Positions 1 through 15,472 of a stretch of DNA of 64,000 nucleotides are shown piece after piece; the stretch's first letter is position 1, and every line of letters begins with the position of its first letter. The translations under genes and the position numbers were made by a program. Origin of the DNA: Pseudomonadota bacterium (lineage in GTDB: Bacteria; Pseudomonadota; Gammaproteobacteria; Burkholderiales; Thiobacillaceae); the NCBI GenBank assembly GCA_021826065.1, contig JAKADY010000011.1, positions 7-64,006 of the forward strand, given 5' to 3'. Under the pieces are notes generated by a model. It did no database searches. It saw only the letters and a list, made by a program, of their open reading frames with translations, and was not told where the DNA came from.

Positions 1-226
1 GGCAAGGCGCGACGACGCCGCAGGGTGGGCTGCCTGCAAGGAGGAGCAACGCAGCCAGACGGGCGTACAAGACCGAAGGCGGGCGCGGAGCGTGTTCACC
101 CTCTGGGAGCGGATGACCGGAGGCAAAATCTCATGCATCATCGAGCTGTTACGAAGCCATAAGAGCGGTCAACTGCGGTTTTTAGGATTATAGCCGATTC
201 GCATCCGCGCCCCCGCTACTCACCCC

Positions 227-1372
227 ATGTTTTCCAACCGTGCCAGCATCCCCGCCGCACTGCAAAGCTTCAAGCTGGAAGGGCGTATGCTCTGCTACAA
301 CAGCTTCGTGCCCAAGCTCTACAACTGGTGCCTGTCACTGGGCTTCACGCCGGGCAAGATCATGCCCTCCCGCGCCTTCTGTTCGGATGAGAGCCAGGGC
401 TTTCCCATCATCCTGCTAGCCAAGCACTTCGGCGCCTTTCCCTTCAACCACGGCCGCGTGGGCGGCATCGTCTCGGTGGAGCGGCACGCACCCCACGCCG
501 ACCACGGCAAGGACCTGGTCCTGCTCCAGGCCAGCCATGTCGGCTATGACCCCGATACCGGCGAGTTCGGGGTCTATCGCCGGCTGCACACCGAGCACGG
601 CGGCAACACCTGCGCCTGCGGCAAGATCGGCCGCATCGTCGAGCAATACGCCAAGGATTACACCTACGCCTGTGAGAGCGTGCGCCTGCTGCGCCACGAG
701 GGCCAGCCGGCGGTGCTCATCGACTATCTGCTGATCGCCCATCCGCAAAAGCAGGGGCTTTACCTCGTCGCGCAGAACCTGGTTCAGGATGCCGAGCGGG
801 GTCTGCCCCGCCCGCTCGCCACCCGCAGCACCGGCTATGTCTATCGCGCCGCCGATAGCCTGGTCGCCCGCCTGGGCGAGGCGACCTGGCCGGAGACGGG
901 CAGCATCGCCATCGGCCAACACCTCAGTGCGGAGGACTTCTACTTCCAGCGCGAGGGCAGCTGGCCCGACCCCTTCCAGGACCAGCTGGAGCAGAATCTG
1001 CTCGCCCCCATGCCCTGGATCCTGACCTCCAAACACCCGCTGCTCACCGCCGCCTGCGCCAACACCTTAGCCGAGTTCGAACGCACCTACCGCAGTTTGC
1101 TGCAGTCACCGGCCATGCGTGGCAAGAACCTGGTCTTCGTGGGCGGGCTCAACATCGACATCTCGCCGCACCTGGGCGACGACTTCCCGCTGACCAAGTT
1201 CGTGCCCTGGGCCGCCTTCGTGCAGTATGCCGATGGCCGTCAGGAGATCCTGGAGCAGGACGACTTGTACCAATGCCTGAGCGCCATGCCCCGGGACAAC
1301 CCGGCCCAGATCGATCTCGAGCGCTCCATCGCGGCCATGTCGGCAAAGGAAGAGGTGCAGGTGCGGATCTAA
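227..1372 (+). CDS. LCIB/LCIC-like beta-carbonic-anhydrase-fold protein (candidate)
   Basis: 381-aa ORF. Block AFCSDESQGFPIILLAKHFGAFPFNHG holds Cys52; His104 is in QASHVGYD; Cys129/131 are in TCACGK. In this Cys..His..Cys layout His and the second Cys are ~25 aa apart, as I recall for the LCIB family, not the canonical HxxC. No clear SD at the ATG; Met21 is an alternative start. Confidence 0.5.
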   Translation: MFSNRASIPAALQSFKLEGRMLCYNSFVPKLYNWCLSLGFTPGKIMPSRAFCSDESQGFPIILLAKHFGAFPFNHGRVGGIVSVERHAPHADHGKDLVLLQASHVGYDPDTGEFGVYRRLHTEHGGNTCACGKIGRIVEQYAKDYTYACESVRLLRHEGQPAVLIDYLLIAHPQKQGLYLVAQNLVQDAERGLPRPLATRSTGYVYRAADSLVARLGEATWPETGSIAIGQHLSAEDFYFQREGSWPDPFQDQLEQNLLAPMPWILTSKHPLLTAACANTLAEFERTYRSLLQSPAMRGKNLVFVGGLNIDISPHLGDDFPLTKFVPWAAFVQYADGRQEILEQDDLYQCLSAMPRDNPAQIDLERSIAAMSAKEEVQVRI

Positions 1373-1539: not shown

Positions 1540-1761
1540 CTAGCCCCGTTCCCGCCCCGCCGCGACGTCGGCCCCGTCCTCGCCCGCCGGCGCGGTCTTC
1601 CCGCTGGGTTGCCATTCCACCCCATGCCGCTTCAGGTATTCGCGGATGAGCTGACGCACCACCTGCGAGGGCGTCATGTCCTGTTGTGCGCAAAGCTGTT
1701 CGAAGGCCTTCTTCTTGGCGGGGTCCAGCAGCACGGTTAAGCGGGCCGTCTTGCGTTCCAT
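1540..1761 (-). CDS. ribbon-helix-helix (CopG/Arc-type) DNA-binding protein
   Basis: 73-aa ORF. KTARLTVLLDPAKKKAFEQLCAQQDMTPSQVVRQLIREYL fits a beta-strand plus two-helix RHH layout, followed by a Gly/acidic tail. ATG at 1761, directly beside a palindrome cluster. Confidence 0.65.
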   Translation of the reverse strand: MERKTARLTVLLDPAKKKAFEQLCAQQDMTPSQVVRQLIREYLKRHGVEWQPSGKTAPAGEDGADVAAGRERG

Positions 1762-1929: not shown

Positions 1930-3942
1930 ATGCCTGAGACCACGCTCCTGGACTGGGCCTGGGCCGTCGTCTTGTATTGGCTCGGGCTGGCCGCTGCAAG
2001 CCTGGCGCTGCAGACGCAGGCCGGCCTCACGCGCTGGGTCGTTTTTCCGCTCGGCATCCTTGGGGCTGCTGCCATGGCGGTCCTGGGGGCGCTGGCCCTG
2101 GCTTCGCCGCCGACCCAGTTCATCCTGCCGATCGGCCTGCCAGAGCTGCCCTTCCACCTGCGCCTGGATGCCCTGTCCGGATTCTTCCTGATCCTGCTGG
2201 GGGTGGCCTCGTCCGGGGTGGGGATCTACGCCATCGGTTATTTCCGGCACATGGCCGCCGGCCCGCTCGCCGTTTTGAGCCTTTGGTACCACCTGTTCCT
2301 CGCCGGCATGGCCCTGGTGCTGCTGGCAGACGACGCCTACGCCTTCATGGTGGCCTGGGAGCTGATGGCGCTGGCGTCCTATTTCCTGGTGACCACAGAC
2401 CACAAGATCCCCGACATCCGCCGCGCCGGTTTCCTCTACCTGCTCATCGCCCATGTCGGGGCGGTCGCCCTGCTGCTCGCCTTCGGCGTGCTGCACGGCA
2501 GCGATCCGGCGCGCATGGCCGCCTACAGCTTCGACGCCATGCGGGAAAACACCCTGAACCCCGCCTGGGCCTCAGTCACCTTCCTGCTCGCCCTGTTCGG
2601 CTTCGGTGCCAAGGCGGGGCTGGTCCCCTTGCACGTCTGGCTGCCGGAGGCCCACCCAGCGGCCCCCTCCCCGGTTTCCGCCCTGATGAGCGGGGTCATG
2701 CTGAAGACCGCGATCTACGGGCTGCTGCGCGTCAGTCTGGACCTCATCGGCGCGCCGCCGGCCTGGTGGGGTACCGTGGCCCTCTCCCTGGGGCTCGTCA
2801 CCGCCCTCTATGGCGTGATCTTCGCCGCCGTGCAGTCGGACATGAAGCGGCTGCTGGCCTGGTCCTCCATCGAGAACATCGGCTTCATCATCGCCGCCTT
2901 CGGCCTCACCCTGATCTTTCACGCCGATGGCAAGGGGGCCCTGGCGGCACTGACCCTGACCGCCCTGCTCTATCACGCCCTCAACCACGCCCTGTTCAAG
3001 AGCCTGTTGTTCGTCGGCACCGGCTCGGTACTGCATGCCACCGGCGAGCGGCGCATGGGGCGCCTGGGGGGGCTGATCCGCTTCATGCCCTGGACGGCCT
3101 GGCTCATGCTGCTGGGGGCCCTGGCCATCGCCGGGTTACCACCACTCAACGGTTTCGTCTCCGAATGGCTGCTGCTGCAGGCCTTCCTGCTCACGCCCGG
3201 CCTCACCCAGCCCTATCTCAACATGGCCATCCCGGTGGCCGCCGCCGTGGTGGTGCTGGCCGCCGCCCTAGCCGCCTATGTCATGGTGAAGTTCTACGGC
3301 GTCATCTTCCTCGGCCAGCCGCGCGATCCTGAACTCAATGAGGCGCACGAGGCCGGCTGGCCGGAGCGGCTGAGTATGCTGGGGCTGGCGGCGGGCTGTG
3401 TGGTCCTGGGGCTCGTACCCTCGCAGATGATCGGCTGGCTCAACCCCGTGGTGGAGGCGCTGCTCCAGCAGACCCTGCCCAACGACGGCAACTGGCTCAT
3501 GGTCGCGCCGCTGTCCGCGCAGCGCGCGAGTTACGCCCCGCTCGTGTTCCTCGCCGTCGTCAGTGCCATCACCCTGCTGGTCTTCTTCGGCGTGAAATAC
3601 GTCTACCACGGCCGGGTGCGCCGCGCCGCCCCCTGGGACTGCGGCTACCCGGAGCTCGACGCGCGCATGCAGGACAGCGCCGAGGGTTTCGGCCAACCCA
3701 TACGTCTGATCTTCAGCGCCTTCATGCGGGTCGAGCGCATCACCCCCGACCCCTTCGATCGCCAACCCCAATACCGTGGCGACAGCCGCGACAAGGTCTG
3801 GCTGTGGCTCTACCAGCCCATCGCCGCCGCGGCGGCCTGGCTCTCGGCGCAGGCGAGCCGGCTGCAGCACGGTCGTATCCAGTGGTATCTGATCTACAGC
3901 TTCGCCACCCTGATCTTCCTGCTCGTCTTCGTCACCCGTTAG
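1930..3942 (+). CDS. HyfB/NuoL-like antiporter-type membrane subunit of a hydrogenase-4-like (Ehr-type) complex
   Basis: 670-aa polytopic ORF of HyfB-like size. Carries the Mrp/NuoL-family core (WELMALASYFLV, GFGAKAGLVPLHVWLPEAHPAAPSPVSALMSGVMLK) and a HyfB-type C-terminal extension. Confidence 0.85.
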   Translation: MPETTLLDWAWAVVLYWLGLAAASLALQTQAGLTRWVVFPLGILGAAAMAVLGALALASPPTQFILPIGLPELPFHLRLDALSGFFLILLGVASSGVGIYAIGYFRHMAAGPLAVLSLWYHLFLAGMALVLLADDAYAFMVAWELMALASYFLVTTDHKIPDIRRAGFLYLLIAHVGAVALLLAFGVLHGSDPARMAAYSFDAMRENTLNPAWASVTFLLALFGFGAKAGLVPLHVWLPEAHPAAPSPVSALMSGVMLKTAIYGLLRVSLDLIGAPPAWWGTVALSLGLVTALYGVIFAAVQSDMKRLLAWSSIENIGFIIAAFGLTLIFHADGKGALAALTLTALLYHALNHALFKSLLFVGTGSVLHATGERRMGRLGGLIRFMPWTAWLMLLGALAIAGLPPLNGFVSEWLLLQAFLLTPGLTQPYLNMAIPVAAAVVVLAAALAAYVMVKFYGVIFLGQPRDPELNEAHEAGWPERLSMLGLAAGCVVLGLVPSQMIGWLNPVVEALLQQTLPNDGNWLMVAPLSAQRASYAPLVFLAVVSAITLLVFFGVKYVYHGRVRRAAPWDCGYPELDARMQDSAEGFGQPIRLIFSAFMRVERITPDPFDRQPQYRGDSRDKVWLWLYQPIAAAAAWLSAQASRLQHGRIQWYLIYSFATLIFLLVFVTR

Positions 3943-3946
3943 CCCC

Positions 3947-4891
3947 ATGACCACCGGTATCGCGCTCCAGATCGGCCAGACCCTGCTGGCCCTCGTGCTC
4001 GCGCCCATGCTGATGGGCTGGGTCAACGTCTGCCGCGCCTGGCTGCAGGGCCGCGTCGCGCCGCCCCTGCTGCAGCCCTACTACAACCTGCGCAAGCTCT
4101 TCCACAAGGACGCCGTGCTGGCGCACGACGCCACCCGCCTGTTCCGCTTCGCCCCCTATATCATCTTCGCCTGCATGGTGCTGGCCGCCGGCATCGTCCC
4201 CACCCTGGCGAACGATCTGCCGTTCTCGCCGGCGGCGGACGTGATCGCCCTGGTCGGCCTGTTCGCCCTGGCCCGGGTCTTCCAGGCCCTGGCGGCGCTG
4301 GACATCGGCACCGCCTTCGGGAGCCTGGGGGCGCGACGCGAGATGCTGATCGCCTTCCTGGCCGAGCCGGCGCTGCTGATGGTCTTCTTCACCGCCAGCC
4401 TCATCTCCCAGTCCACCGAACTGCCCCACATCGTGGACCGCCTGGCCCACCAGGAATTCGCGCTCTATCCCAGCCTCGCCTTCGCGGCGGTGGCCTTTTG
4501 GATGGTCTCCACCGCCGAGAACGCCCGCATCCCGGTGGACAACCCCACCACCCATCTGGAGCTGACCATGATCCACGAGGCGATGGTGCTGGAATACTCC
4601 GCCCGGCACCTGGCCATGATCGAGTGGGCGGTGGCCTTGAAGCTCTTCACCTACTCCACCCTGGGTATCGCGCTCTTCCTGCCATGGGGCATCGCACCGG
4701 CGGGGGACCTCAACGCCCTGCCGCTCGCCCTGCTGGCGCTTGCCCTCAAGCTGGCGATAGGAGGGGCGGCGCTCGCCCTGCTGGAGACGGTCAACGCCAA
4801 GATGCGCCTGTTCCGCGCCCCCGAATTCCTTGGCACCGCCTTCCTGCTGGCGGTGCTTGGGATGCTCACGCACTTCCTGCTGGAGGTCTGA
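3947..4891 (+). CDS. HyfC/HycD/NuoH-like membrane subunit
   Basis: 314-aa polytopic ORF starting 4 nt after the preceding stop. N-terminus LAPMLMGWVNVCRAWLQGRVAPPLLQPYYNLRKLFHKD is typical of formate-hydrogenlyase subunit 4 / NuoH. Confidence 0.85.
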   Translation: MTTGIALQIGQTLLALVLAPMLMGWVNVCRAWLQGRVAPPLLQPYYNLRKLFHKDAVLAHDATRLFRFAPYIIFACMVLAAGIVPTLANDLPFSPAADVIALVGLFALARVFQALAALDIGTAFGSLGARREMLIAFLAEPALLMVFFTASLISQSTELPHIVDRLAHQEFALYPSLAFAAVAFWMVSTAENARIPVDNPTTHLELTMIHEAMVLEYSARHLAMIEWAVALKLFTYSTLGIALFLPWGIAPAGDLNALPLALLALALKLAIGGAALALLETVNAKMRLFRAPEFLGTAFLLAVLGMLTHFLLEV

Positions 4892-4892
4892 G

Positions 4893-5555
4893 GTGAGCCT
4901 GACCTACCACCTGCAAGTCGTCAACCTGCTGGCCGCGCTGCTGCTGCTGATCGCCTTCGCCATGCTGTCGCAGCGCCGCATCGTCGGGTTGATCACCCTG
5001 TTCGCCTGGCAGGGGGCAGCGCTGGCGACCTCGACCGCCATCGTCGCCTGGTCCACCGGTCAGCATCACCTCTACTACTCCGCCGCCCTGACCCTGGGCC
5101 TCAAGGTGGTCCTCGTGCCCTGGTACTTCTTCCGGTTGATCCGCCAGCTCGACGTGGACCGGGAGGTGGAGCCGATGATCAACATCCCCACCACCATGCT
5201 GATCGGCATCATTCTGGTGATCTTCGCCTTCAACCTGGCCCTGCCCATCTCGCAGATGGCCGGCACGGTGACGCGCTCCACCCTGGGGATTGCGCTGGCC
5301 AGCGTGCTGCTCGCCTTCCTCATGATGATCACGCGCAGCAAGGCCATCCCCCAGGTGATCGGCTTCCTGGCCATGGAAAACGGCCTGTTCTTCGCCGCCA
5401 CCAGCGCCACCTACGGCATGCCCCTGGTGGTGGAGCTCGGCGTGGCCCTGGACGTGCTGGTGGCCGTGTTCGTGCTGGGTATCTTCTTCTTCCACATCCG
5501 CGAGACCTTCGACTCGATGGATCTCAAGCACATGGAGCGACTGCGGGAGAAATGA
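4893..5555 (+). CDS. HyfE-like small membrane subunit
   Basis: In-frame GTG at 4893, 1 nt after the hyfC-like stop (the track ORF start at 4830 overlaps the upstream gene). ~220 aa, hydrophobic, ending MENGLFFAA...LDVLVAVFVLGIF as in hydrogenase-4 component E. Confidence 0.8.
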   Translation: MSLTYHLQVVNLLAALLLLIAFAMLSQRRIVGLITLFAWQGAALATSTAIVAWSTGQHHLYYSAALTLGLKVVLVPWYFFRLIRQLDVDREVEPMINIPTTMLIGIILVIFAFNLALPISQMAGTVTRSTLGIALASVLLAFLMMITRSKAIPQVIGFLAMENGLFFAATSATYGMPLVVELGVALDVLVAVFVLGIFFFHIRETFDSMDLKHMERLREK

Positions 5556-5623
5556 GCCCGGTCGGCATCTCCTCTTTGCCGCGCAACGCGCTTGCCAGCG
5601 CCGCACTCGGGAGGACGGCGTAG

Positions 5624-7081
5624 ATGGAAATGTATTGGTTGCTGGGCTTGCCGCTCGCCGGCGGTATCACCCTGGCCTTCTGGGGCCATCGCGCGCATGC
5701 CCCGGAGATCAACGCCGCCTTCAGCCTGGCCACCCTCATCGCCGCCGGGTGGCTGACCGCCCACATCGTGGCGGAAGGCCCGGTGCTGATCGGCGGCGAT
5801 GGCTGGTTCTACATCGATGCCTTCAACGTCTTTCTGGTGGCGCTCACCGCCTTCGTCGCCTTCACCACGGCGCTCTTCTCGCGCCCCTACATGCGCATCG
5901 AACAGGCGCACGGCCGGGTGAACGCAGCACGGCTGCGCCTGTACCACGCCAGCTATCAACTGTTCATCGGCACCATGCTGCTGGCGCTGACCACCAACAA
6001 CATGGGCATCCTCTGGGTGGCCATGGAGGCGGCCACCCTCACCACCGTGCTGCTGGTATCGCTCTACCGCACACCGGCCGCCCTGGAGGCCGCATGGAAA
6101 TACTTCATCCTCTGCGGCGTTGGCATCGCGCTGGCCCTGTTCGGCACCATCCTGCTCTATTTCGCGGCGGAACAGGTGCTGGGCGCTGGCGGCGGGGCAC
6201 TGTCCTGGACGCACCTCAATGCGGTGAAGACCCGGCTGGAACCCGTCGTGCTGCAGCTGGCCTTCGTCTTCCTGCTGGTGGGCTACGGCACCAAGGTGGG
6301 CCTGGTGCCCTTGCACAGCTGGCTGCCCGACGCCCATGGCGAGGGGCCCACCCCCATCTCCGCCGTGCTCTCGGGTCTGTTGCTCAACGTGGCCCTCTAT
6401 GCGGTGATGCGTTCCAAGGTCCTGGTGGACGGGGCGCTGGGCGGCGCCAGCCTGGCCGGTGCCCTGATGATGGGGTTCGGGCTGCTGTCGGTGCTCGTCG
6501 CCGCCCTGCTCATCCGGCGACAGACCGACGTCAAGCGGATGTTCGCCTATTCCTCCATCGAGCACATGGGGTTGATCACCTTTGCCTTCGGCATGGGTGG
6601 GATGGTGGCCTCCTTTGCGGCGCTGTTGCACATGACCGTGCACTCGCTGACCAAGTCGGCCATCTTCTACGCCGTGGGTCATGCCACGCAAAAGGCTGGC
6701 ACGCAGGTGATGGAGGACATCCGTGGCCTGATCAAGACCAATCCCACCATCGGTTGGGGCCTGATCCTCGGCACCATCGCCATCCTGGGCGTGCCACCAT
6801 TCGGCGTGTTCGCCAGCGAGTTCCTCATCATCACCACCACCATGCACCAGCACCCCTGGGCCACCCCGGTGCTGCTCACGGCACTGGGCGTGGCCTTCGC
6901 TGCCATGTTCGGGCGCGTGCAGCCCATGGTCTTCGGCGAGACCACCCTGCCGCGGCTGCCGCATCAGCCGGCCCTGCTGCCGGTGTTCGTCCACCTGGCG
7001 CTGGTGCTGATGTTGGGCCTGTTCATTCCGGGCTATCTCGCCCACTGGTATCGTCAGGCGGCGTGCCTGCTCGGCGGCTGA
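5624..7081 (+). CDS. HyfF/NuoM/N-like antiporter-type membrane subunit
   Basis: 485-aa polytopic ORF with GGGAGGA SD 8 nt upstream. Motifs GILWVAMEAATLTTVLLV and GYGTKVGLVPLHSWLPDAHGEGPTPISAVLSG match the complex-I antiporter-like family. Confidence 0.85.
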   Translation: MEMYWLLGLPLAGGITLAFWGHRAHAPEINAAFSLATLIAAGWLTAHIVAEGPVLIGGDGWFYIDAFNVFLVALTAFVAFTTALFSRPYMRIEQAHGRVNAARLRLYHASYQLFIGTMLLALTTNNMGILWVAMEAATLTTVLLVSLYRTPAALEAAWKYFILCGVGIALALFGTILLYFAAEQVLGAGGGALSWTHLNAVKTRLEPVVLQLAFVFLLVGYGTKVGLVPLHSWLPDAHGEGPTPISAVLSGLLLNVALYAVMRSKVLVDGALGGASLAGALMMGFGLLSVLVAALLIRRQTDVKRMFAYSSIEHMGLITFAFGMGGMVASFAALLHMTVHSLTKSAIFYAVGHATQKAGTQVMEDIRGLIKTNPTIGWGLILGTIAILGVPPFGVFASEFLIITTTMHQHPWATPVLLTALGVAFAAMFGRVQPMVFGETTLPRLPHQPALLPVFVHLALVLMLGLFIPGYLAHWYRQAACLLGG

Positions 7082-7093
7082 GGGTCAGGCGAC

Positions 7094-8644
7094 ATGGACA
7101 CGCACATCGGCGACATCGAACTCACCCTCACCCCGCAGGGCGGCAGCGCCGTCTGGCGCTTCGGCCTCGCACCTGAGCGGCTGCCGGCCTTCGCCCGCGC
7201 CATCCAAGAGGAAGGCGGGCAGTTGTTGGCCCTGTGGGGTAGCGACGACCGCCATCTCGGGCGCGGCTTCGGCCTGCATATGGTATTCCTATCGAGCCAA
7301 GGGCTCGTCTGGACCCAGGCCGATCTGCCCGCCGCAGCCCCGGAGTATCCCGACCTCGCCGCCATCTTCCCCCAGGCCGAGCGCATGCAACGCGCCGCCT
7401 ATGACCTGCTGGGGCTGCGCGCCAGCGGCGCGGTGGATGGCCGCAAATGGCTGCGCCACACCGCCTGGGGGGAAGACGAATACCCCCTGCGCAAGGACGC
7501 CCCGAGTCAGCCCCCTCCCGCCTCACCTACCCAGGCGGACGCCTACCCATTCATCCGCGTGGCCGGCGATGGCGTACACGAGATCCCGGTCGGTCCCATC
7601 CATGCCGGCGTGATCGAACCAGGGCACTTCCGCTTCTCTGTCGTCGGCGACAAGGTGCTTCGGCTGGAGGAACGGCTGGGCTACACCCACAAGGGCATCG
7701 AGAAGCGCTTCGAGGGGATGGATTTGTCGCTGGGCGCGCGGCTGGCCGGGCGCGTGTCCGGTGACAGCCACTCAGCCTACACCTGGGCCTACTGCATGGC
7801 CGTGGAGGCGGCGCTGGGGTTCACGGTGCCCGAGCGGGCGCTGTGGCTGCGGGCCCTGCTCCTGGAGATGGAGCGCGTGGCCAACCACCTGGGCGACCTG
7901 GGCTATCTCGGCAACGACGTGGCCTTAAGCTTCGGTTTCGCCCAGTTCTGGCGGCTCAAGGAGGATTGGCTGCGCCTGGCACAGCGACTGTTCGGCCACC
8001 GCTATGCCTTCGACTGCATCGTCCCCGGCGGCGTAACGACCGACCTCGGCGAGGCGGACGCCCTACTGGACCTGGTGCGGCGGCTGAGGACCGAGGTCGC
8101 GGAGCTCAAGGCGGTCTACGACGAGCATGCCGGTGTGCAGGACCGTTTCGCCCACACCGGCCGGGTCGACCCGGCCATGGCCGCGCGTTTGGGGGTCATC
8201 GGCCTGGCGGGCCGGGCGAGCGCCCAGGCCTGGGACCTGCGCGTGCAATTCCCCCACCCGCCCTACGACCGGCTGGAGGTCAACATGGCCACCGACCGAC
8301 GCGGTGACGTGCTGGCCCGGGTCGAGGTGCGCTTTGCCGAGGTGTTCGAGTCGCTGCGCCTGATCGAGGCCATCGTGCAGCGGCTGCCCGCCGACCCCCT
8401 GCAGGCGGAGGTGCCGCACGCGGACGGCGTGCGCGAGGGCTTGGGCTATGTGGAGGGCTGGCGCGGCCCCGTCCTGGTGGCGGTGCGCATCGGCATGGAT
8501 GGCCGGCTCGACCGCGTACACCCGCATGACCCGTCATGGCAGAACTGGCCGGCGCTGGAGGTCGGTATCCTGGGCAACATCGTCCCGGATTTCCCGCTCA
8601 TCAACAAGTCCTTCAATCTGTCTTACAGCGGTCACGACCTCTAG
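7094..8644 (+). CDS. NuoC-NuoD/HycE-like large subunit lacking all [NiFe] cysteine ligands
   Basis: 516 aa with a NuoC-like N-terminus fused to a HycE/NuoD-like body (PVGPIHAGVIEPGHFRF, LGYTHKGIEKRFE). The expected RxCGxCxxxH site reads GRVSGDSHSAY. The expected C-terminal DPCxxC site reads NLSYSGHDL-stop. The protein has only 2 Cys, neither in a CxxC. Confidence 0.85.
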   Translation: MDTHIGDIELTLTPQGGSAVWRFGLAPERLPAFARAIQEEGGQLLALWGSDDRHLGRGFGLHMVFLSSQGLVWTQADLPAAAPEYPDLAAIFPQAERMQRAAYDLLGLRASGAVDGRKWLRHTAWGEDEYPLRKDAPSQPPPASPTQADAYPFIRVAGDGVHEIPVGPIHAGVIEPGHFRFSVVGDKVLRLEERLGYTHKGIEKRFEGMDLSLGARLAGRVSGDSHSAYTWAYCMAVEAALGFTVPERALWLRALLLEMERVANHLGDLGYLGNDVALSFGFAQFWRLKEDWLRLAQRLFGHRYAFDCIVPGGVTTDLGEADALLDLVRRLRTEVAELKAVYDEHAGVQDRFAHTGRVDPAMAARLGVIGLAGRASAQAWDLRVQFPHPPYDRLEVNMATDRRGDVLARVEVRFAEVFESLRLIEAIVQRLPADPLQAEVPHADGVREGLGYVEGWRGPVLVAVRIGMDGRLDRVHPHDPSWQNWPALEVGILGNIVPDFPLINKSFNLSYSGHDL

Positions 8645-8646
8645 CC

Positions 8647-9180
8647 ATGGCCACGCACCTCATCCTGCGAAAGATCCTCAAGACCGGCCGGGTGACCGAA
8701 CCGGCGCCGCCGGCCAATGCGGCCTACCGCGTGCGCCTGCAGGCGCTGCAGGCAGAGCTGTACGAGGTCTTCGGCCGGGCGCTGACCATCCGCCACGTCG
8801 ATGCCGGCTCATGCAACGGCTGCGAGCTGGAGATCCACGCCCTCAACGGCCCGCACTACAACCTCGAGGGTTTGGGCATCAAGTTCGCCGCCAGCCCGCG
8901 CCACGCCGACGTGCTGCTGGTCACCGGGCCGGTGTCGCGCCACCTGGAGACGGCCCTCAAGCGGACCTACGAGGCCACACCGGAACCGAAATGGGTGGTG
9001 GCGATGGGCGACTGCGCCTGCACGGGTGGCATCTTCGGCGAGAGCTACGCGAGCCGCGGGCGGGTGGCGAATGTCATCCCGGTCGACGTGGAGATCCCGG
9101 GCTGCCCGCCCGACCCGGTGCGCCTGCTCGAAGGCATCCTGGCCGCGGTCAAGATCGACCGCAGCCATGGCGCGTCCTAG
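8647..9180 (+). CDS. NuoB/HycG-like small subunit (single [4Fe-4S] site retained)
   Basis: ATG at 8647, 2 nt after the large-subunit stop (the track ORF start at 8536 overlaps upstream). Cys pattern GSCNGCE ... GDCACTGG ... GCPPDP matches the N2/proximal-cluster ligands. Confidence 0.85.
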   Translation: MATHLILRKILKTGRVTEPAPPANAAYRVRLQALQAELYEVFGRALTIRHVDAGSCNGCELEIHALNGPHYNLEGLGIKFAASPRHADVLLVTGPVSRHLETALKRTYEATPEPKWVVAMGDCACTGGIFGESYASRGRVANVIPVDVEIPGCPPDPVRLLEGILAAVKIDRSHGAS

Positions 9181-9836
9181 CCGGCGAGCAGGGGCAGCAG
9201 TAGACGCGCGGCGACCGGTCCCTCGGCGCCGTGCGGCAGGCGCACCACCCGGGCGTTGATCCAGCGTTTCAGATCGGTGGCATTGTCCAAGAGCGGCTCA
9301 CCCTGTGGGCTGATCTCACTCAGCACGACCCCCGTCAGTTTCAGCCCACGCCGCTCAATCGCCTCGGCGCTGGCCAGCACCTGGTGGATCGCACCCAGGC
9401 GGTCCGCGGCCACCAGCAGCACAGGCAGTCCCAAGGCCAGGGCGAGGTCGGCATTGAGCCCGTCCTGCGCGATCGGCGAGAGGAAGCCGCCCGCCCCCTC
9501 CACGAGCAGGAAGTCCTCGGCGCCGAGGCCAGCGCGGCAATGCGCGACGAGGTCGCTGAGGCGATAGCCCACACCCTCCAGCCGGGCGGCCCGCTCGGGC
9601 GAGAGCGCGGCCATCAGGCGGTAGCGGCAGACGGCCTCGAGTGGCTCGCCGGTGACGGCGGCGTAGGCCAGGGCATCCTGAGGTCGCAGTTCGCCGTTCA
9701 CACGGGGACAACCCGATTCCACTGGCTTGCGCGCCCGCACGCGCCACCCCTGGGCCACGAGTGCCGCCGCCAAGGCGGTGCCGACATGGGTCTTGCCCAC
9801 GCCGGTGTCGGCCCCGGTGATGAACAGTCCGCGCAT
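9177..9836 (-). CDS. bioD: dethiobiotin synthetase
   Basis: 219 aa; N-terminal FITGADTGVGKTHVGTALAAAL P-loop and overall BioD-like sequence; convergent with the hyf-like operon, ends overlapping by 4 nt. Confidence 0.85.
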   Translation of the reverse strand: MRGLFITGADTGVGKTHVGTALAAALVAQGWRVRARKPVESGCPRVNGELRPQDALAYAAVTGEPLEAVCRYRLMAALSPERAARLEGVGYRLSDLVAHCRAGLGAEDFLLVEGAGGFLSPIAQDGLNADLALALGLPVLLVAADRLGAIHQVLASAEAIERRGLKLTGVVLSEISPQGEPLLDNATDLKRWINARVVRLPHGAEGPVAARLLLPLLAG

Positions 9837-9848
9837 GGATCAACGCAC

Positions 9849-10610
9849 TCAAGTTCCTGCGAACGGCGAGGATGGCATGGGTGGAAGCGGTCGCCGTGTC
9901 ATGAGCCAGGCCAGGGCCCAGACGCAGCCCGCAGCAGCGATCAGGTGCTTGAGCGTATGCCCGGAGACGAACCCGGTGGCCTCGAAGATCGGGCGGTCCA
10001 GCCACTCCACCAGCAGGGCCAGGGCATAGCAGGCGTAGACCACGGCCACGGCCATCGAACCGGTGTAACGCGCCGGGCGGCGCCAGACAAGCCAGCCCAC
10101 CAGCAGCACCGGCCAGAACTGCACATAGCCCCAGGGACGCAGATCGCCGCGTCCGGCGAGCTCTGTGGCATACCAGTAGAGCACACTGCCCAGGCCGAGG
10201 ATGAGCAGGACGGGCAGCAGACGCAGGGTGAGGCGCACGTCCAGCCGTTCCGCTAGGTGAATGGCCAACCAGCCCATGAAGGTCACCGCCATCGCCAGCC
10301 GATCCAGCATGAGTCCCCGGTCGTCGGGGGCGAGATGATAATAGGCCGAGGCGGGTCCCAGCAGCGTGAGTCCGGTGAAAAAGACGGCCCAGGGCCAGCG
10401 CTCGCGCTGGTCGTGGAAACGACCCACACGTCCGCGCGCGAGCGCGGCGAGCCCGGCCAGCCCCGTGAGGCTGAAGGGCAGGTTTGAGGCCACATCGGCG
10501 AAGTTGGCCACGCCCAGCCAGGCCCGCCGGTCGGCGAAGTCGTGATACTCCGGCCATTGGGCGACGGGCGGCACGGCCAGCGTCACCGCAGCGGCCACCG
10601 CCAGGCTCAT
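9849..10610 (-). CDS. polytopic membrane protein, alkaline-ceramidase-like family (tentative)
   Basis: ATG at 10610 chosen because the track ORF extends to 11000 through the neighbouring gene. 253 aa, ~7 hydrophobic segments, with YYHLAPDD...LDRL and SGHTLKHL motifs reminiscent of the ceramidase/haemolysin-III superfamily. Confidence 0.45.
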   Translation of the reverse strand: MSLAVAAAVTLAVPPVAQWPEYHDFADRRAWLGVANFADVASNLPFSLTGLAGLAALARGRVGRFHDQRERWPWAVFFTGLTLLGPASAYYHLAPDDRGLMLDRLAMAVTFMGWLAIHLAERLDVRLTLRLLPVLLILGLGSVLYWYATELAGRGDLRPWGYVQFWPVLLVGWLVWRRPARYTGSMAVAVVYACYALALLVEWLDRPIFEATGFVSGHTLKHLIAAAGCVWALAWLMTRRPLPPMPSSPFAGT

Positions 10611-10651
10611 GGCAAGGGCCTCGCGCTCAAGGCGCACGGTGTCCGCGGGGA

Positions 10652-11512
10652 TCACGGATTGCACCAGTCGCAGGCGCCCGGATCGGCCGCGACCGCCGCC
10701 AGCGCTCGCGTCTCGCGCCGGTCGCAGCGGGGGCAGGCCCAGACCTCGGCGCGGGCCTCGCGGGTGGGCGCGCCGCAGTCGGCACAGGGCAGCCCTGGCA
10801 GCCGCTCGACCGGCCAGTAGCCGGGTGCGCCGCAGTCGGGGCAGCGTGACAGCAGTTTGTCGCGCAGGTCCTCCGCCGCCCGGCGGATCAGCCCCCGACG
10901 GGTGGGGTGGGCATGCGCACGCAGGTCGTGTTCGAGGCAGACCAGCCCGTTGTCGGCCTCGGCGCGGGCGTGGGCGAAGGCCCGCTCGAGTGCCGCCCAA
11001 CTGTCGAGCCCCTTGACGATGCGGGGGGCTTCCGGGTGGGCCGGGCGCACCACCAGATGGTGCTCGGGAAATCCCGCCTCGGCGGCGAAGCGCTGCGCCT
11101 CGAGCCAGTCGCCGGTCAGCCTGTGGGCGAAGCGGGTGGGTCCCTGGGCCAGGCCCACCACCTCGATGCCGTGCAGGTCGTCGACCAGCAGGACCATCTC
11201 GGTGTTCCAGGGCGCCGCGCCCAGATAGGGGTCGGCGCCAAAGGCCCCCTCGCTGGCCAGCCCCAGCGGCAGGCCGGCGATCTCCATGCCGATCAGCGCC
11301 TTGCGGCGCGCCGCCTCGCGCTGGCTGCCTGCGCGCGGGATGTCGCGCGTGAAACTACCCAACCGGTCGGTGTCGAAGCCGCCGACGCGCTGCACCCGGC
11401 AGCCCAGCGCGGCATCGAGCACCGCAGCGAGGATCATCTCCTTGCCGTGCTGGGTGAGCAGGGCGATCTCGCGGCCGTGATAGGGGTGGCCGGGGTTGGG
11501 CGGCGGTTTCAT
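10652..11512 (-). CDS. hypothetical protein with C-terminal 4x CxxC zinc-ribbon region
   Basis: 286-aa ORF with protein-like composition. C-terminus has CPDC, CADC, CPRC and CDWC. Family not recognised with certainty. Confidence 0.5.
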   Translation of the reverse strand: MKPPPNPGHPYHGREIALLTQHGKEMILAAVLDAALGCRVQRVGGFDTDRLGSFTRDIPRAGSQREAARRKALIGMEIAGLPLGLASEGAFGADPYLGAAPWNTEMVLLVDDLHGIEVVGLAQGPTRFAHRLTGDWLEAQRFAAEAGFPEHHLVVRPAHPEAPRIVKGLDSWAALERAFAHARAEADNGLVCLEHDLRAHAHPTRRGLIRRAAEDLRDKLLSRCPDCGAPGYWPVERLPGLPCADCGAPTREARAEVWACPRCDRRETRALAAVAADPGACDWCNP

Positions 11513-11561
11513 GCGCTAGGCTCTTGCGGCATGGACAGCGGCGCGGGTAGCTGACCGGGAT

Positions 11562-12140
11562 TCAGCGCATCAGCAGCAGGGCGATGACCACCGCCGCCAC
11601 CACGGCCCAGCCCAGGGTGTCCACATAACGGTGCAAGGCCGCTTCCATGCGCGCCCCGCCCAGCCGCATGAGCCCCGCCACCAGGTAGAAACGGGCACCG
11701 CGGCCGATGACCGAGGCGAGGACGAAGGGCAACAGGGCCATGGACAGCACGCCGGCGGCAATGGTGAAGACCTTGTAGGGGATGGGCGAGAAACCGGCGA
11801 CGAAGACCGCCCAGAAACCATAGCGTTCGAACCAGTCCACCGCCAGCCGGTAACCCTCGGCATAGCGCGGCCGCGCCTCGATCCAGGGGGCGATCAGTTC
11901 GAAAGCGAAGTGGCCGATGGCATAGCCCGCCAGCCCGCCGGCCACCGAGGCCAGGGTGGTGATGAGGGCCAGCCGCCAGGCGCGGTCCGGCCGCGCCAGC
12001 GCCATCGGCGCCAGCATGACGTCCGGCGGGATGGGGAAGAAGGACGACTCGGCGAAGGAGAGCCCACCCAGATACCAGGGCGCACGCGGGTGGCGCGACC
12101 ATTGCATGACACGCCGGTACAGCGGGGAAAAGAGCCTCAC
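11562..12140 (-). CDS. YqaA/DedA-type (SNARE-associated) membrane protein
   Basis: 192 aa; AESSFFPIPPDVMLAPMAL and FSPIPYKVFTIAAGVL motifs typical of the YqaA/DedA family; 4-nt overlap with the upstream gene. Confidence 0.7.
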   Translation of the reverse strand: MRLFSPLYRRVMQWSRHPRAPWYLGGLSFAESSFFPIPPDVMLAPMALARPDRAWRLALITTLASVAGGLAGYAIGHFAFELIAPWIEARPRYAEGYRLAVDWFERYGFWAVFVAGFSPIPYKVFTIAAGVLSMALLPFVLASVIGRGARFYLVAGLMRLGGARMEAALHRYVDTLGWAVVAAVVIALLLMR

Positions 12141-14283: not shown

Positions 14284-14406
14284 GAAAATCGGCATAGCCG
14301 ATCACATCGCCCCCTTCCCCCGCAAGCGGGGGAGGGGGTGGGGGAGAGGGAACCGTTCATGGACGGGGCGAGCGTTTTTTCATGGGCAAGAGCGGCCATG
14401 AACGGT
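14284..14406. repeat. BoxC-like GGGTGAGGG intergenic repeat, copy 1 (subtype with ACCGTTCATG...CATGAACGGT ends)
   Basis: GAAAATCGGCATAGCCGATCAC - CCCCTTCCCCCGCAAGCGGGGGAGGGGGTGGGGGAGAGGGAACCGTTCATG ... CCATGAACGGTCA. Near-identical architecture to 50935-51063. Lies between the queA start and the LysR stop. Confidence 0.8.
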
Positions 14407-15350
14407 CAGCTTGGCTTGTCCGGTCGGGCGGCCGAGCGGCGGTAGGGCGCCAGCAGTTCGTCCGTGAACTGGTGGATGAAGCGGCGGAACTGCCCCACCA
14501 CCGGCATGTCGCCCTTGACGCTCAGGTAGACCAGATACCAGTGGCCGAGGATGGGCAGTGTCTCGACGTCGAGGACGCGGATCTCCTCGCCGAAGTGGAG
14601 GCCCGCCAGCATGGTCCGCGAGACGATGGACACGCCCACGCCGGTGGCGACCGCCTGCTCGATGGCGAAGTTGCTGCCGAGCTCCATGCGCGGGCGGATC
14701 TTGATGCCGTGTTGCGCCAGATGGCGCTCGATGGTGATGCGCGTGCCCGAGCCCGGCTCGCGCATCAGGAAGGGCTGGGCGCAGAACTCGGCCAGGGGGA
14801 TGCGGCGCCGGCGCCGCGCGAGGGGATGCTGACGGGCGGCGATGGCCACCAGCTCGTTGGGCATGAAGGGCTCCACCGTCAGGTCCGGCCCCTCTGGCGG
14901 CACGCTGAAGATGTAGAGGTCGTCGAGGTTGTCGCGCATGCGCTTCAACAGCACGTCGCGCTGGGTCACGCTCAGGGTGGGCTCGATGGCCGGGTGCTGT
15001 TGCAGGAAGTGGCCGAGGATGCGCGGGGCGAAGAACTTGGCCGAGGTCGCCACCCCCAGCCGTAGCCTCCCCCCCTCCAGCCCCTTGAGCGCCTGTAGCC
15101 GCGCCTGCATCTGCTCCAGCCCGTCGAGCATGATGCGCGCGCCGGCCAGCACGATCTCGCCCGCCTCGGTCAGATGCAGCTTCTTGCGGTGGGTGTAGAA
15201 CAGCGGGCTGCCGACGATGTCCTGCAGCTGCGCCATCTGCATGGACACCGTGGGCTGGGTCAGGTGCAGTTCGCGCGCGACCTGGCTGAAGTTGCCGCAG
15301 CGGGCGAGGCGCTCGAAGACCTGCAGTTGGCGCAGTGTGGGGTAGGCCAT
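14406..15350 (-). CDS. LysR-family regulator, CbbR paralog
   Basis: ATG at 15350 (track ORF runs to 15482). 314 aa. Alignable along its length with the cbbR product at 40020 (HLTQPTVSMQM, GRLRLGV..SAKFFAPR, LMREPGSGTR, ELGSNFAIEQAV). Divergent from SulP gene 15473. Confidence 0.8.
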   Translation of the reverse strand: MAYPTLRQLQVFERLARCGNFSQVARELHLTQPTVSMQMAQLQDIVGSPLFYTHRKKLHLTEAGEIVLAGARIMLDGLEQMQARLQALKGLEGGRLRLGVATSAKFFAPRILGHFLQQHPAIEPTLSVTQRDVLLKRMRDNLDDLYIFSVPPEGPDLTVEPFMPNELVAIAARQHPLARRRRRIPLAEFCAQPFLMREPGSGTRITIERHLAQHGIKIRPRMELGSNFAIEQAVATGVGVSIVSRTMLAGLHFGEEIRVLDVETLPILGHWYLVYLSVKGDMPVVGQFRRFIHQFTDELLAPYRRSAARPDKPS

Positions 15351-15354
15351 TAGA

Positions 15355-15372: not shown

Positions 15373-15472
15373 GTCGGTATCGTAACAATTGATTTCAGCT
15401 TATACAAGCCGCGCCCTAAGATGACCCCCATGGCGCGGCATCCGGTCACGCATCGAGAGAGAGGAGCTTTCC

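Follow-up and report, generated by a model that had tools for sequence, protein, structure and literature searches.

A six-gene Ehr-type membrane complex without Ni-Fe ligands adjoins inorganic-carbon genes

The window (the whole stretch of DNA analysed here, 64,000 nucleotides) carries six genes that are predicted to encode a membrane-bound, complex-I-like assembly. The cluster belongs to the already known Ehr (energy-converting-hydrogenase-related) family, a term reportedly coined in Marreiros et al. 2013. In the window, as in many relatives, the cluster adjoins CO2- and bicarbonate-uptake genes, so that an energy-driven pump for inorganic carbon, not yet described, is a possible function. 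We give about an even chance to the reading, suggested by gene context, that the complex is an ion-gradient-coupled engine for inorganic-carbon (DIC) uptake. The new element is the genomic context, the Ehr family itself being known: no mention of Ehr genes in a SulP, gamma-carbonic anhydrase (gamma-CA), LCIB-like, RuBisCO, carboxysome or ribbon-helix-helix (RHH) context was found in the searchable literature.

The cluster and its remodelled large subunit

The six open reading frames (ORFs) are tightly packed on the plus strand at 1930-9180, with intergenic gaps of -2 to 68 nt. Together with Pfam and NCBIfam matches, they bear out the Hyf-like six-gene membrane complex described in an earlier, sequence-only reading of this DNA.

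1930-3942, plus strand: HyfB/HycC-like antiporter-type membrane subunit (670 aa; PF00361; NF005086 'hydrogenase 4 subunit B', 875 bits)
3947-4891, plus strand: HyfC/HycD/NuoH-like membrane subunit (314 aa; PF00146, 115 bits)
4893-5555, plus strand: HyfE-like small membrane subunit (220 aa; NF008556, 89 bits, below the cutoff of 136)
5624-7081, plus strand: HyfF-like antiporter-type membrane subunit (485 aa; PF00361; NF005045 'hydrogenase 4 subunit F', 838 bits)
7094-8644, plus strand: EhrL, fused NuoC+NuoD/HycE-like large subunit (516 aa; PF00329+PF00346)
7748-7780, plus strand: GRVSGDSHSAY within EhrL, at the site of the hydrogenase RxCGxCxxxH (alignment to HycE)
8615-8641, plus strand: NLSYSGHDL, followed by the stop codon, at the site of DPCxxCxxH (alignment to HycE)
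8647-9180, plus strand: EhrS, NuoB/HycG-like small subunit (177 aa; PF01058, 114 bits)

The HyfE-like gene starts with a GTG at 4893 (the ORF as listed spans 4830-5555), and its product has the same length, 220 aa, as the orthologues in two related loci (L090 and L092). For EhrL, no NCBIfam model scored above its own cutoff, and the best solved relative was HycE of the E. coli Hyc complex (PDB 7Z0S; 7z0s_E, 238 bits). In the alignment of the two proteins, the HycE segment 'drvCgiCgfaH' is matched by 'grvSgdShsaY' (aa 219-229) and 'sldpCysC' by 'sfnlSysG'; EhrL stops 3 residues further on, and the C-terminal extension past the old DPCxxC site is absent. None of the four Ni-Fe cysteines remains (their places are taken by S222, S225, S510 and G513), and the only two cysteines of the protein, C234 and C308, do not form a CxxC.

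We assessed the conservation of EhrL among 84 homologues from independent assemblies, reaching down to 44% identity. R220, G223 and D224 were kept in 84/84, S222 in 74/84 and S225 in 75/84. At the C-terminus N504, K505 and S506 were invariant, while N508, Y511, G513 and D515 were near-invariant (81-83/84). Since the replaced motifs are near-invariant over this range, the cysteine substitutions are not a sequencing artefact. The sequence-only reading had named intact ligands, for example hidden by a frameshift, as a finding that would refute it; the ORF is intact and the ligand loss is family-wide. The former Ni-Fe site instead holds a polar pocket that is new and invariant in the EhrL family, with R220, D224 and E175 unchanged in all 84 homologues. 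It was also noted that EhrL lacks the quinone ligands of complex I, as H38 and Y87 of Nqo4 align with I174 and G223. The complex cannot produce or use H2 at any Ni-Fe centre. The earlier statement that it is not a hydrogenase is supported by the ligand loss, the missing C-terminal extension and the lack of maturation genes in the window.

Membrane arm, Fe-S cluster and electron input

Both antiporter-like subunits conserve a TM5 Glu, a TM7 Lys, a TM11 His/His/Lys set and a TM12 Glu. In the HyfB-like subunit, E144, K228, K259, H349, H353, K357 and E412 were kept in 59-62 of 62 homologues, and E135, K224, H336, H340, K344 and E399 of the HyfF-like subunit were invariant in 75/75. Many acidic residues of the HyfC/NuoH-like subunit were invariant as well (e.g. 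E140, E191, D198, E205, E211 and E216), and E163 and E182 of the HyfE-like subunit were conserved. The two antiporter-type subunits and the NuoH-like/HyfE-like connecting pair are predicted to form an intact ion path. EhrS retains the four cysteines that had been assigned to one [4Fe-4S] cluster (C56, C59, C123 and C153; conserved in 78-80 of 80 homologues) and carries an additional one, C125. The NuoCD-like/NuoB-like cap thereby appears to keep a single [4Fe-4S] cluster, but it has neither a Ni-Fe site nor a quinone site and lacks a subunit for ferredoxin docking.

Both in the order of its genes and in the kinds of subunit they encode, the cluster corresponds to HyfB, C, E, F, G and I of hydrogenase-4 (Hyf, FHL-2). 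Unlike Hyc and Hyf, the cluster is without the four Ni-Fe cysteines, HyfA/HycB, HyfH/HycF and HyfD, and none of the window's likely genes encodes Hyp, HycI, formate dehydrogenase, HyfA or HyfH, as had been observed before. A HycF/HyfH-type ferredoxin subunit was found within the cluster neither here nor in 167 related loci, and at those loci neither a NuoI/HycF-like gene nor a conserved downstream partner was detected. A CxxCxxCxxxCP ferredoxin motif occurred near the cluster in 5/167 loci and inside it in 0. The conserved ion-path residues and the missing NuoI/HycF-like gene agree with the proposal of an ion-translocating module that has no electron-input part.

Ehr complexes have been described as hydrogenase-related, with their function stated to be unknown (PMC6349859, PMC10284858). 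Like the cluster, they comprise group-4 large and small subunit homologues with NuoH-like and antiporter-like subunits, and they lack the CxxC Ni-Fe motifs. No structural difference was seen; what differs is the SulP, gamma-CA, LCIB-like, RuBisCO and carboxysome neighbours and the shared RHH gene documented here.

Inorganic-carbon genes in the window and in relatives

The DIC-acquisition neighbourhood noted earlier is real, with two SulP+STAS transporters, an alpha-carboxysome/RuBisCO operon and an LCIB-family gene.

227-1372, plus strand: LCIB-family (beta-carbonic-anhydrase-like) protein (381 aa; PF18599, 27.9 bits, cutoff 25)
1540-1761, minus strand: small RHH_9 protein, divergent from the Ehr operon (PF19839, 78 bits)
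1773-1791: perfect palindrome ATTATCATGcCATGATAAT, within an AT-rich island that separates the RHH gene from hyfB
14406-15482: LysR gene, divergent from the first SulP gene
15473-17554, plus strand: SulP+STAS transporter (context; PF00916+PF01740)
18574-21551, minus strand: sigma54-type two-component pair before the second SulP gene
21581-22141: conserved 186-aa ORF preceding the second SulP gene
22192-24300, plus strand: second SulP+STAS transporter (context)
about 25576-39673, minus strand: alpha-carboxysome/RuBisCO operon (context; Pfam matches)

The carboxysome operon has Pfam matches to a BMC-domain gene, CbbO-like, CbbQ, ParA-like, CsoSCA, CsoS2 and CbbL, and is separated from the Ehr cluster by 16 kb of unrelated genes. 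No DabA homologue was found in the window. In the LCIB-like protein, the motifs fCSDE, HVGyD and CaCG align with the LCIB Zn-site motifs, and C52, D54, H104 and C131 were invariant across 30 homologues. The top 7 Foldseek matches of its AF2 model (pLDDT 76.8, with low confidence around the putative Zn site) were LCIB/LCIC crystal structures. Its gene shares the DIC island with the Ehr cluster, but the protein is not established as a subunit of the complex.

The RHH_9 protein is probably a regulator. Its gene adjoins hyfB-like genes in about 29 loci, in 24 of them at less than 400 nt from the hyfB start, and copies 82-86% identical stand before SulP or DabA clusters in sister genomes. The palindrome ATTATCATGcCATGATAAT, a candidate operator, occurs once in the window (chance expectation 0 matches), and related AT-rich palindromes occupy the equivalent place in L084, L088, L005 and L007.

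We compared these surroundings across related loci. Within the clade of the window, defined by an EhrL identity of at least 66%, a DIC-type gene stood directly upstream in 13/13 scorable loci, that is, non-redundant loci with at least 1.5 kb of upstream sequence (7 SulP, 3 gamma-CA and 3 LCIB-like). Among distant relatives, SulP, gamma-CA or LCIB-like genes were directly upstream in 11/72 scorable loci, and the upstream neighbour was uninformative in 61/72. The conserved synteny that the sequence-only reading had suggested looking for is thus present. In SulP-linked relatives the SulP gene lies on the same strand as hyfB, 40-140 nt upstream, so that co-transcription is likely; it is the orthologue (59-69% identity) of a 709-aa SulP from carboxysome islands. 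Another 10 EhrL clusters, defined at 70% identity, likewise have a SulP gene next to the Ehr genes, on the upstream or the downstream side, and two SulP subtypes are involved.

Sister genomes share a layout of LCIB-like gene, RHH_9 gene and a variable slot, and the carboxysome operon directly follows this slot wherever the fetched sequence extends so far (L084-L089, L182, L183). The slot holds SulP in L084/85 and L182/183, a DabA cluster with several PF00361 genes in L088/89, L173-175 and L180/181, and the six Ehr genes in the window, L090 and L092, with a few unrelated minus-strand genes before the carboxysome operon. Because the LCIB-like gene also adjoins DabA or SulP where no Ehr cluster is seen, it is tied to the carboxysome island and not to Ehr.

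In L001, L005, L007/L111 and L113, the gene immediately upstream of the Ehr cluster encodes a genuine Cam/CcmM-type gamma-CA, with 3/3 His ligands present. RuBisCO genes adjoin the cluster in L007/L111, L103 and L044, and by locus-tag order the cluster AFE2149-54 adjoins cbbM-Q-O (AFE_2155-57) in A. ferrooxidans (PMC2621215, PMC6458275). The suggested CO2/HCO3- link stands as far as the conserved synteny and the adjoining RuBisCO or carboxysome genes at several loci are concerned, but not for gene 227-1372 as part of the Ehr system. Heterotrophs and methanotrophs carry members of the family too, among them Paraburkholderia, Burkholderia, Acidobacteriaceae and Methylobacter.

Proposed role and alternatives

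In the window's organism, the Ehr complex would be a working part of a CO2-concentrating mechanism (CCM), in which downhill flow of protons (or Na+) through the membrane arm would yield net cytoplasmic bicarbonate for the carboxysome. The intact pump residues and the absence of any encoded redox partner were counted in favour. As a sub-mechanism we tentatively prefer vectorial CO2 hydration, by analogy with DabAB and cyanobacterial NDH-1MS. CO2 would be hydrated by an associated carbonic anhydrase (the LCIB-like protein here, gamma-CA in other genomes) or by the remodelled pocket itself, and removal of the proton through the pump would block the back-reaction. Somewhat less likely, the complex would instead energise a co-encoded SulP-type HCO3- transporter. 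The divergent RHH protein may set expression by acting at the palindrome between the rhh and hyfB genes.

A precedent is DAB2 of Halothiobacillus neapolitanus, where PF00361 subunits power CO2 hydration and the gene for the proton-conducting subunit likewise lies beside carboxysome genes (PMC13144422). The sister-genome DabA cluster fills the exact slot of the Ehr genes; unlike DabAB, Ehr is built of six subunits, some of which form a NuoB/NuoCD-type cap that carries an Fe-S cluster, and its carbonic anhydrase partner is putative. Cyanobacterial NDH-1MS/MS' (CupA/CupB) is also a complex-I-type machine for CO2-to-HCO3- conversion in a carboxysome-based CCM, but it has a functional ferredoxin-to-plastoquinone redox path, whereas Ehr is without quinone ligands and a NuoI-type subunit. 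In plant and protist mitochondrial complex I, gamma-CA is associated with the complex-I-type membrane arm; for Ehr such a contact is a guess, and the window's neighbour is LCIB-like.

Several observations count against DIC uptake. Conservation of the four [4Fe-4S] cysteines speaks for some redox role, which a purely ion-gradient-driven pump does not need. The A. ferrooxidans cbbM adjacent to Ehr responds to CO2 in the reverse sense of a classical CCM component, as high rather than low CO2 induces it. The uninformative distant loci, the non-autotroph hosts, an LCIB-like gene that is not Ehr-specific and the 16 kb carboxysome gap were also noted. SulP and TauE neighbours could in principle transport sulfur oxyanions.

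The foremost alternative, possible but on balance improbable, is a redox enzyme: a separately encoded soluble donor such as ferredoxin would dock on the NuoB-like subunit, and the [4Fe-4S] cluster and pocket would turn over a small molecule coupled to ion translocation, as with polysulfide in Pyrococcus MBS, with the DIC-gene linkage being indirect (e.g. regulation shared with autotrophy). The kept cluster cysteines, the invariant pocket and the many non-autotroph carriers fit such an enzyme, and the literature suggests redox roles for Ehr, e.g. FDH-Ehr (PMC6349859). The top PDB match of the HyfF-like subunit is MbsH (6u8y_H, 139 bits) of P. furiosus MBS/MBX (PDB 6U8Y), likewise a hydrogenase-derived respiratory complex that has lost H2 production. 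However, the roughly 13 subunits of MBS include a NuoI-like one that binds ferredoxin and a Mrp-type Na+ module, and the cluster has neither. A NuoI/HycF-like protein, flavoprotein or molybdoenzyme stood beside the cluster in 0/167 loci, the downstream neighbour is not conserved, the quinone ligands are missing, and it is anion transporters and carbonic anhydrases, rather than redox proteins, that are enriched among the neighbours.

A general Mrp-like cation/proton antiporter for pH or Na+ homeostasis, with the cap as a structural relic and SulP co-location reflecting a shared need for ion balance, appears quite unlikely. The two PF00361 subunits with intact Lys/Glu pathways, the lack of an encoded energy input and an RHH_9 homologue beside a Na+/H+ exchanger in Azohydromonas would suit it. 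Yet 0/6 proteins match the Mrp-specific small-subunit families MrpE/F/G/B (Pfam, NCBIfam), a relic cap is not expected to be near-invariant down to 44% identity, and homeostasis leaves the gamma-CA, LCIB-like and RuBisCO neighbours unexplained.

A true group-4 [NiFe] hydrogenase (Hyf/FHL-2 type) with error-hidden or non-cysteine ligands is contradicted by the sequence and has a negligible chance: the antiporter-type subunits exceed the cutoffs of the NCBIfam equivalogs 'hydrogenase 4 subunit B/F' and some database entries are named 'Ni,Fe-hydrogenase III large subunit', but hyp and hycI were not found in the window, a HycF-/HycB-type subunit is absent, and the intact ORF carries Ser/Ser/Ser/Gly replacements that are conserved in 84 independent assemblies.

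Subunits of the cluster and the remodelled EhrL site

Six genes, all on the plus strand and spaced -2 to 68 nt apart, make up the Ehr (energy-converting-hydrogenase-related) cluster of the window, in which the G+C content is approximately 68%:

1930-3942, plus strand: HyfB-like antiporter-type subunit (PF00361; NF005086, 875 bits)
3947-4891, plus strand: NuoH/HyfC-like subunit (PF00146)
4893-5555, plus strand: HyfE-like subunit (NF008556, 89 bits, under the model cutoff)
5624-7081, plus strand: HyfF-like antiporter-type subunit (PF00361; NF005045, 838 bits)
7094-8644, plus strand: EhrL, the large subunit, a fused NuoC+NuoD (PF00329 and PF00346; NCBIfam models all under cutoff)
8647-9180, plus strand: EhrS, the NuoB-type small subunit (PF01058)

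The Pfam matches of the six proteins were limited to PF00361, PF00146, PF00329, PF00346, and PF01058. It was noted that essentially all of the 167 related loci carried six genes per cluster, and that the PF00146 gene and the two PF00361 genes were colinear in nearly all of them. Two of the subunits passed the NCBI hydrogenase 4 "equivalog" thresholds, so that automatic annotation will name the cluster a hydrogenase; homologues likewise have hydrogenase-type names in the database. By its predicted subunits, the window complex is an Ehr complex in the published sense, combining group-4-type large and small subunits devoid of the Ni-Fe motifs with NuoH-like and antiporter-like subunits. It shares with the group 4 [NiFe]-hydrogenases (Hyf/FHL) a HycE/HyfG-type large subunit and a HycG/HyfI-type small subunit with one [4Fe-4S] cluster. 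The small subunits MrpB/C/E/F/G, which are features of Mrp antiporters, were unmatched among the six proteins in Pfam and NCBIfam, and the Mrp-type A and D models of NCBIfam matched only the two PF00361 proteins, all far under cutoff. A search of the window with Rfam at gathering thresholds returned no RNA families.

The nearest solved relative of EhrL was E. coli HycE (7z0s_E; 238 bits). In this alignment, HycE "RVCGICGFAH" corresponded to "RVSGDSHSAY" in EhrL and "DPCYSC" to "NLSYSG", with the four Ni-Fe ligand cysteines replaced by S222, S225, S510, and G513; the only cysteines of EhrL are C234 and C308. [NiFe]-hydrogenases dependent on a HycI-type protease carry an extension after the DPCxxC position that is cleaved off. 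EhrL stops three residues past "NLSYSG" and therefore has no extension beyond this point. In an ungapped block shared with T. thermophilus Nqo4 (2fug_4), the complex I quinone ligands His38 and Tyr87 aligned with I174 and G223, both of which are invariant in the EhrL family. With the Ni-Fe cysteines replaced and the quinone ligands absent, EhrL has neither a Ni-Fe site nor the quinone site of complex I.

In a set of 84 homologues with identities as low as 44%, the residues R220, G223, D224, E175, H170, H178, H199, H265, and D479 were invariant, as were N504, K505, and S506 of the C-terminal motif NKSFNLSYSGxDL. Four further residues (N508, Y511, G513, and D515) were conserved in 81-83 of the 84, and S222 and S225 were kept in 74-75. 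The sequence-only reading had allowed that a frameshift might hide intact ligands; since the same replacements are conserved across 84 assemblies, such a frameshift or sequencing error was ruled out. As far as sequence speaks, the replacement of the Ni-Fe site is not decay, and the complex is neither a Ni-Fe hydrogenase nor a complex I-type quinone reductase.

The four NuoB-type [4Fe-4S] cysteines were conserved in 78-80 of 80 EhrS sequences. The HyfB-like subunit kept E144, K228, H349, H353, K357, and E412 and the HyfF-like subunit E135, K224, H336, H340, K344, and E399, which we take, from a motif comparison with NuoL/M/N, to be the antiporter-type TM5 Glu, TM7 Lys, TM11 His/His/Lys, and TM12 Glu. 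A series of acidic residues was invariant in the NuoH-like subunit, and two glutamates were conserved in the HyfE-like subunit. Judged by these residues, the ion-translocating apparatus of the complex looks functional.

The electron-input side was also assessed. The ferredoxin motif CxxCxxCxxxCP was found inside the cluster in 0/167 loci and within -9/+4 kb in 5/167. The gene 3' of EhrS was not conserved among the related loci, and a conserved downstream partner oxidoreductase was sought there without a hit. Consisting of six genes only, the cluster lacks the HycF/HyfH and HycB/HyfA electron-input subunits and the formate dehydrogenase partner, and it differs from respiratory complex I (NDH-1) in having neither its quinone ligands nor NuoI and the NADH/ferredoxin input module. 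Pfam scans of the likely genes in the 64-kb window detected no Hyp, HycI, formate dehydrogenase, HyfA, or HyfH gene. By these results, no redox partner is encoded with the Ehr cluster. The sequence-only reading is thereby upheld in its main structural claims, namely a six-gene Hyf/Ehr-type complex (by Pfam, NCBIfam, and coordinates), a large subunit with two cysteines and no Ni-Fe ligands, a small subunit retaining its four cluster cysteines, an ion-translocating module with intact pump residues, and no electron-input or maturation genes among the likely genes of the window.

Inorganic-carbon genes beside Ehr clusters

Loci were sampled around EhrL homologues, with 80 from species-representative genomes and 80 from metagenomes, together with context loci for single proteins, and were collapsed at EhrL identities of at least 97% into 160 groups. 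Those with EhrL at least 66% identical to that of the window were treated as its clade, and a group counted as scorable when its upstream sequence extended for 1.5 kb or more. A gene of dissolved inorganic carbon (DIC) type, meaning a SulP, Cam/CcmM-type gamma-carbonic anhydrase (gamma-CA), or LCIB-like gene, lay directly upstream in 13/13 scorable groups of this clade (SulP 7, gamma-CA 3, LCIB-like 3). The gamma-CA aligned with Methanosarcina Cam at 113-122 bits and with CcmM at 94 bits, and all three zinc histidines were kept. The SulP gene was located 40-140 nt from hyfB on the same strand, which makes a seven-gene operon likely, and its product was orthologous (59-69% identity) to the 709-aa SulP flanking the LCIB-like gene in carboxysome islands. 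For distant EhrL, SulP was upstream in 11/72 scorable groups and immediately downstream in 2/95; for most of the distant relatives, the neighbours were uninformative. Clustering of EhrL at 70% identity gave 58 clusters, 11 of which had DIC-type neighbours, so that the association is not one inherited arrangement. In the comparison loci L001 (2195-4762), L005, L007, L111, and L113, the genes ahead of the Ehr cluster encode a TauE-family anion permease and a Cam/CcmM-type gamma-CA, with an additional Usp gene in L001; the permease may be another candidate anion/DIC transporter.

RuBisCO genes adjoined the Ehr cluster in L007/L111 and L103 (cbbL-Q-O) and in L044, where form II-like cbbM-Q-O follows directly downstream. 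This last locus, from a Thiomonas MAG, has the order Ehr-cbbM-cbbQ-cbbO at 6374-10899. Including the window and L092, carboxysome/RuBisCO linkage was found in the window, L092, L007/L111, L103, and L044. In A. ferrooxidans, the same six-gene cluster (AFE2149-54) was called a "group 4 hydrogenase" (PMC2621215) and is numbered right beside the cbbM-cbbQ-cbbO-cbbR operon AFE_2155-58, an adjacency passed over in both papers describing these clusters (PMC2621215, PMC6458275). Two points call for caution over a DIC role: the cbbM gene next to this Ehr cluster rises at high CO2, and the Ehr family was also encountered in heterotrophs and methanotrophs. These gene neighbourhoods link the Ehr complex genomically with DIC transporters, carbonic anhydrases, and RuBisCO, and the synteny with DIC genes proposed earlier is conserved.

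Around the Ehr cluster, the window contained the following features:

227-1372, upstream of the Ehr cluster: LCIB-family (LCIB_C_CA) gene, 381 aa (PF18599, 27.9 bits against a cutoff of 25)
1540-1761, minus strand: RHH_9 protein, 73 aa, between the LCIB-like gene and hyfB
1773-1791: perfect palindrome ATTATCATGcCATGATAAT, a candidate operator, in an AT-rich island and unique in the window
18574-21551, minus strand: sigma54-type two-component pair (response regulator and histidine kinase)
Further downstream of the Ehr cluster: two SulP+STAS genes (Pfam)
Further downstream of the Ehr cluster: alpha-carboxysome/RuBisCO operon (Pfam)

The product of gene 227-1372 carries the LCIB-type motifs CSDE, HVGxD, and CxCG. 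Its C52, H104, and C131, candidate Cys-His-Cys zinc ligands, and D54 aligned to the LCIB motifs and were invariant in 30 homologues, with a pairwise E-value of only 0.04 and a low-confidence model in this region. The predicted structure (pLDDT 76.8) had significant Foldseek matches solely to LCIB/LCIC crystal structures, which made up the seven best matches (TM 0.57-0.68 on target). Orthologues numbered 2541 database matches, and the gene (~381 aa) was a constant component of the DIC islands that adjoin carboxysome genes in Thiobacillus-type genomes (window; L084-L092, L173-L175, L180-L183), with SulP, SbtA+PII, DabA, or Ehr as its varying neighbours. The island layout was SulP709 or SbtA+PII, Trypsin_2 with a 100-aa gene, the LCIB-like gene, RHH_9, and a final slot X; no divergent SulP start, as in the sister islands, was recognisable in window positions 1-226. 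Slot X was occupied by a SulP gene in L084/85 and L182/183, by DabA with several PF00361 genes in L088/89, L173-175, and L180/181, and by the six Ehr genes in the window, L090, and L092. The position of the Ehr cluster therefore holds known or candidate DIC-uptake systems in sister genomes, beside a common RHH gene.

The carboxysome operon came directly after X where the fetched sequence extends that far (L084-L089, L182, L183), and in the islands with Ehr genes (window, L090, L092) a few unrelated minus-strand genes (BioD-like, QueA, Sua5, and others) stood in between; the distance is ~16 kb for the window and ~4 kb for L092. L086/87 had neither RHH_9 nor X, and the carboxysome operon lay directly 3' of the LCIB-like gene. 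The DAB-like cluster of L088 (11489-20614; also in L089, L173, and L180) comprised a DabA of 1048-1079 aa and up to four PF00361 genes and is thus larger than the two-gene DabAB. The island RHH proteins were 82-86% identical to the window RHH_9 and were divergent before X, with related AT-rich palindromes alongside. RHH of the window type accompanied ~29 Ehr loci in all, and in another lineage it preceded an operon containing SulP. Being divergent before SulP, DabA, and Ehr operons, this family is a candidate regulator of DIC-uptake genes.

A dedicated partnership of gene 227-1372 with the Ehr complex was considered and rejected. Its orthologues adjoin DabA and SulP systems where no Ehr cluster was seen, and it is missing from every Ehr locus other than the window, L090, and L092; it belongs to the island. 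A cytoplasmic carbonic anhydrase normally short-circuits a carboxysome-based CO2-concentrating mechanism (CCM). For this reason, the bacterial LCIB-like protein may be a gated or CO2-recapture enzyme, of which algal LCIB is an example.

Candidate roles of the complex

The complex itself is a member of the known orphan family Ehr, the function of which is stated to be unknown and for which the proposals to date are redox, such as FDH-Ehr (PMC10284858, PMC6349859). We regard it as an even question whether the Ehr complex is an ion-gradient-coupled component of DIC uptake. For the CO2/HCO3- role suggested earlier, the gene linkage is conserved, and the function itself is read from this context.

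The mechanism that we favour, by analogy and as a doubtful proposal in itself, is vectorial CO2 hydration on the DAB/NDH-1MS model, because PF00361 subunits power CO2 hydration in DAB2 (PMC13144422) and two unrelated carbonic anhydrase classes occupy one operon position. Hydration of CO2 would be gated by ion flow through the HyfB/HyfF/HyfC/HyfE arm. The hydration site would be either an attached carbonic anhydrase, the class of which could vary (LCIB-like, gamma-CA), or the invariant Arg-Ser-Asp-Ser/Glu pocket replacing the Ni-Fe site, with the old gas and proton channels retained. A PF00361 subunit with conserved charged residues and the carboxysome/RuBisCO linkage are shared with DAB, whereas its catalytic subunit DabA (PF10070) had no homologue in the window or any Ehr locus (tblastn, L088 DabA query). 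Likewise, the scanned window genes had no Pfam match of the CupA/CupB (ChpY/ChpX) type, a feature of NDH-1MS. Nearly as likely as vectorial hydration is that the Ehr complex energises the co-encoded SulP transporter. Tentatively, inorganic-carbon pumps derived from complex I could include Ehr of this type as a third class that evolved independently, after NDH-1MS and DAB.

The main rival, which we hold to be unlikely, is some redox reaction with its donor encoded elsewhere; the conserved Fe-S cluster of EhrS is a hint of redox chemistry. Should the DIC hypothesis fail, this cluster and the conserved pocket would point to an undiscovered redox reaction tied to autotrophy. A sulfur-oxyanion role, suggested by SulP, TauE, and rhodanese neighbours, was judged less likely on two grounds: the SulP has its orthologue in carboxysome islands with SbtA/PII, DabA, and LCIB-like genes, and the family extends to organisms that do not oxidise sulfur.

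Ehr is widespread: for this subfamily alone, database entries number at least 8000 proteins, and species-representative genomes contribute at least ~600 loci. Its occurrence in Nitrospira and Acidithiobacillus is on record, and routine annotation still names the subunits hydrogenase-4 or formate hydrogenlyase, as with the same six-gene cluster of Nitrospira (HyfBCEFGI; PMC6131200). A 2024 minireview (PMC10880623) noted that carbonic anhydrase genes stand next to "formate hydrogenlyase" genes in other autotrophs, an arrangement left unexplained. In the searchable literature, we found no paper tying CCMs to Ehr or Hyf-like clusters and none that treats LCIB homologues in chemolithoautotrophs; nor did it yield the systematic Ehr-DIC gene link, the DAB/SulP slot equivalence, the common RHH gene, or the bacterial LCIB homologues. 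The gene-context pattern turns an Ehr of "function unknown" into a specific and directly testable hypothesis. If true, chemolithoautotrophs would have a new energy-coupled DIC-uptake system, the complex I scaffold would have been repurposed a third way, and CCM engineering would gain another compact candidate module. The long-orphan Ehr would also acquire a function, explaining its spread in autotrophs and bicarbonate-needing heterotrophs.

Further genes near the clusters

A 186-aa ORF without a Pfam match (21581-22141, plus strand) lies directly 5' of SulP and adjoins the sigma54-type pair on the minus strand. The same arrangement was noted in L084, L088, and L090, and L003 (Parasulfuritortus cantonensis, SJZB01000002) has a smaller 129-aa gene in this position before its SulP-Ehr operon (2752-12045). 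A double-rhodanese gene (24352-25545, minus strand) is flanked by the second SulP gene on one side and, on the other, by the BMC-domain gene with which the carboxysome operon ends. A BioD-like (AAA_26) gene (9177-9836, minus strand) converges on the EhrS gene with a 4-nt overlap at its end, an arrangement shared with L090 and L092. CO2 is a substrate of dethiobiotin synthetase, a link that is probably a coincidence. A spermine-synthase-like gene recurred beside Ehr clusters (e.g., L033), with 4 upstream and 3 downstream cases in the census, and in L178 (3081-6186) it was found in an operon by an RHH_9 gene, with SulP and HiPIP genes.
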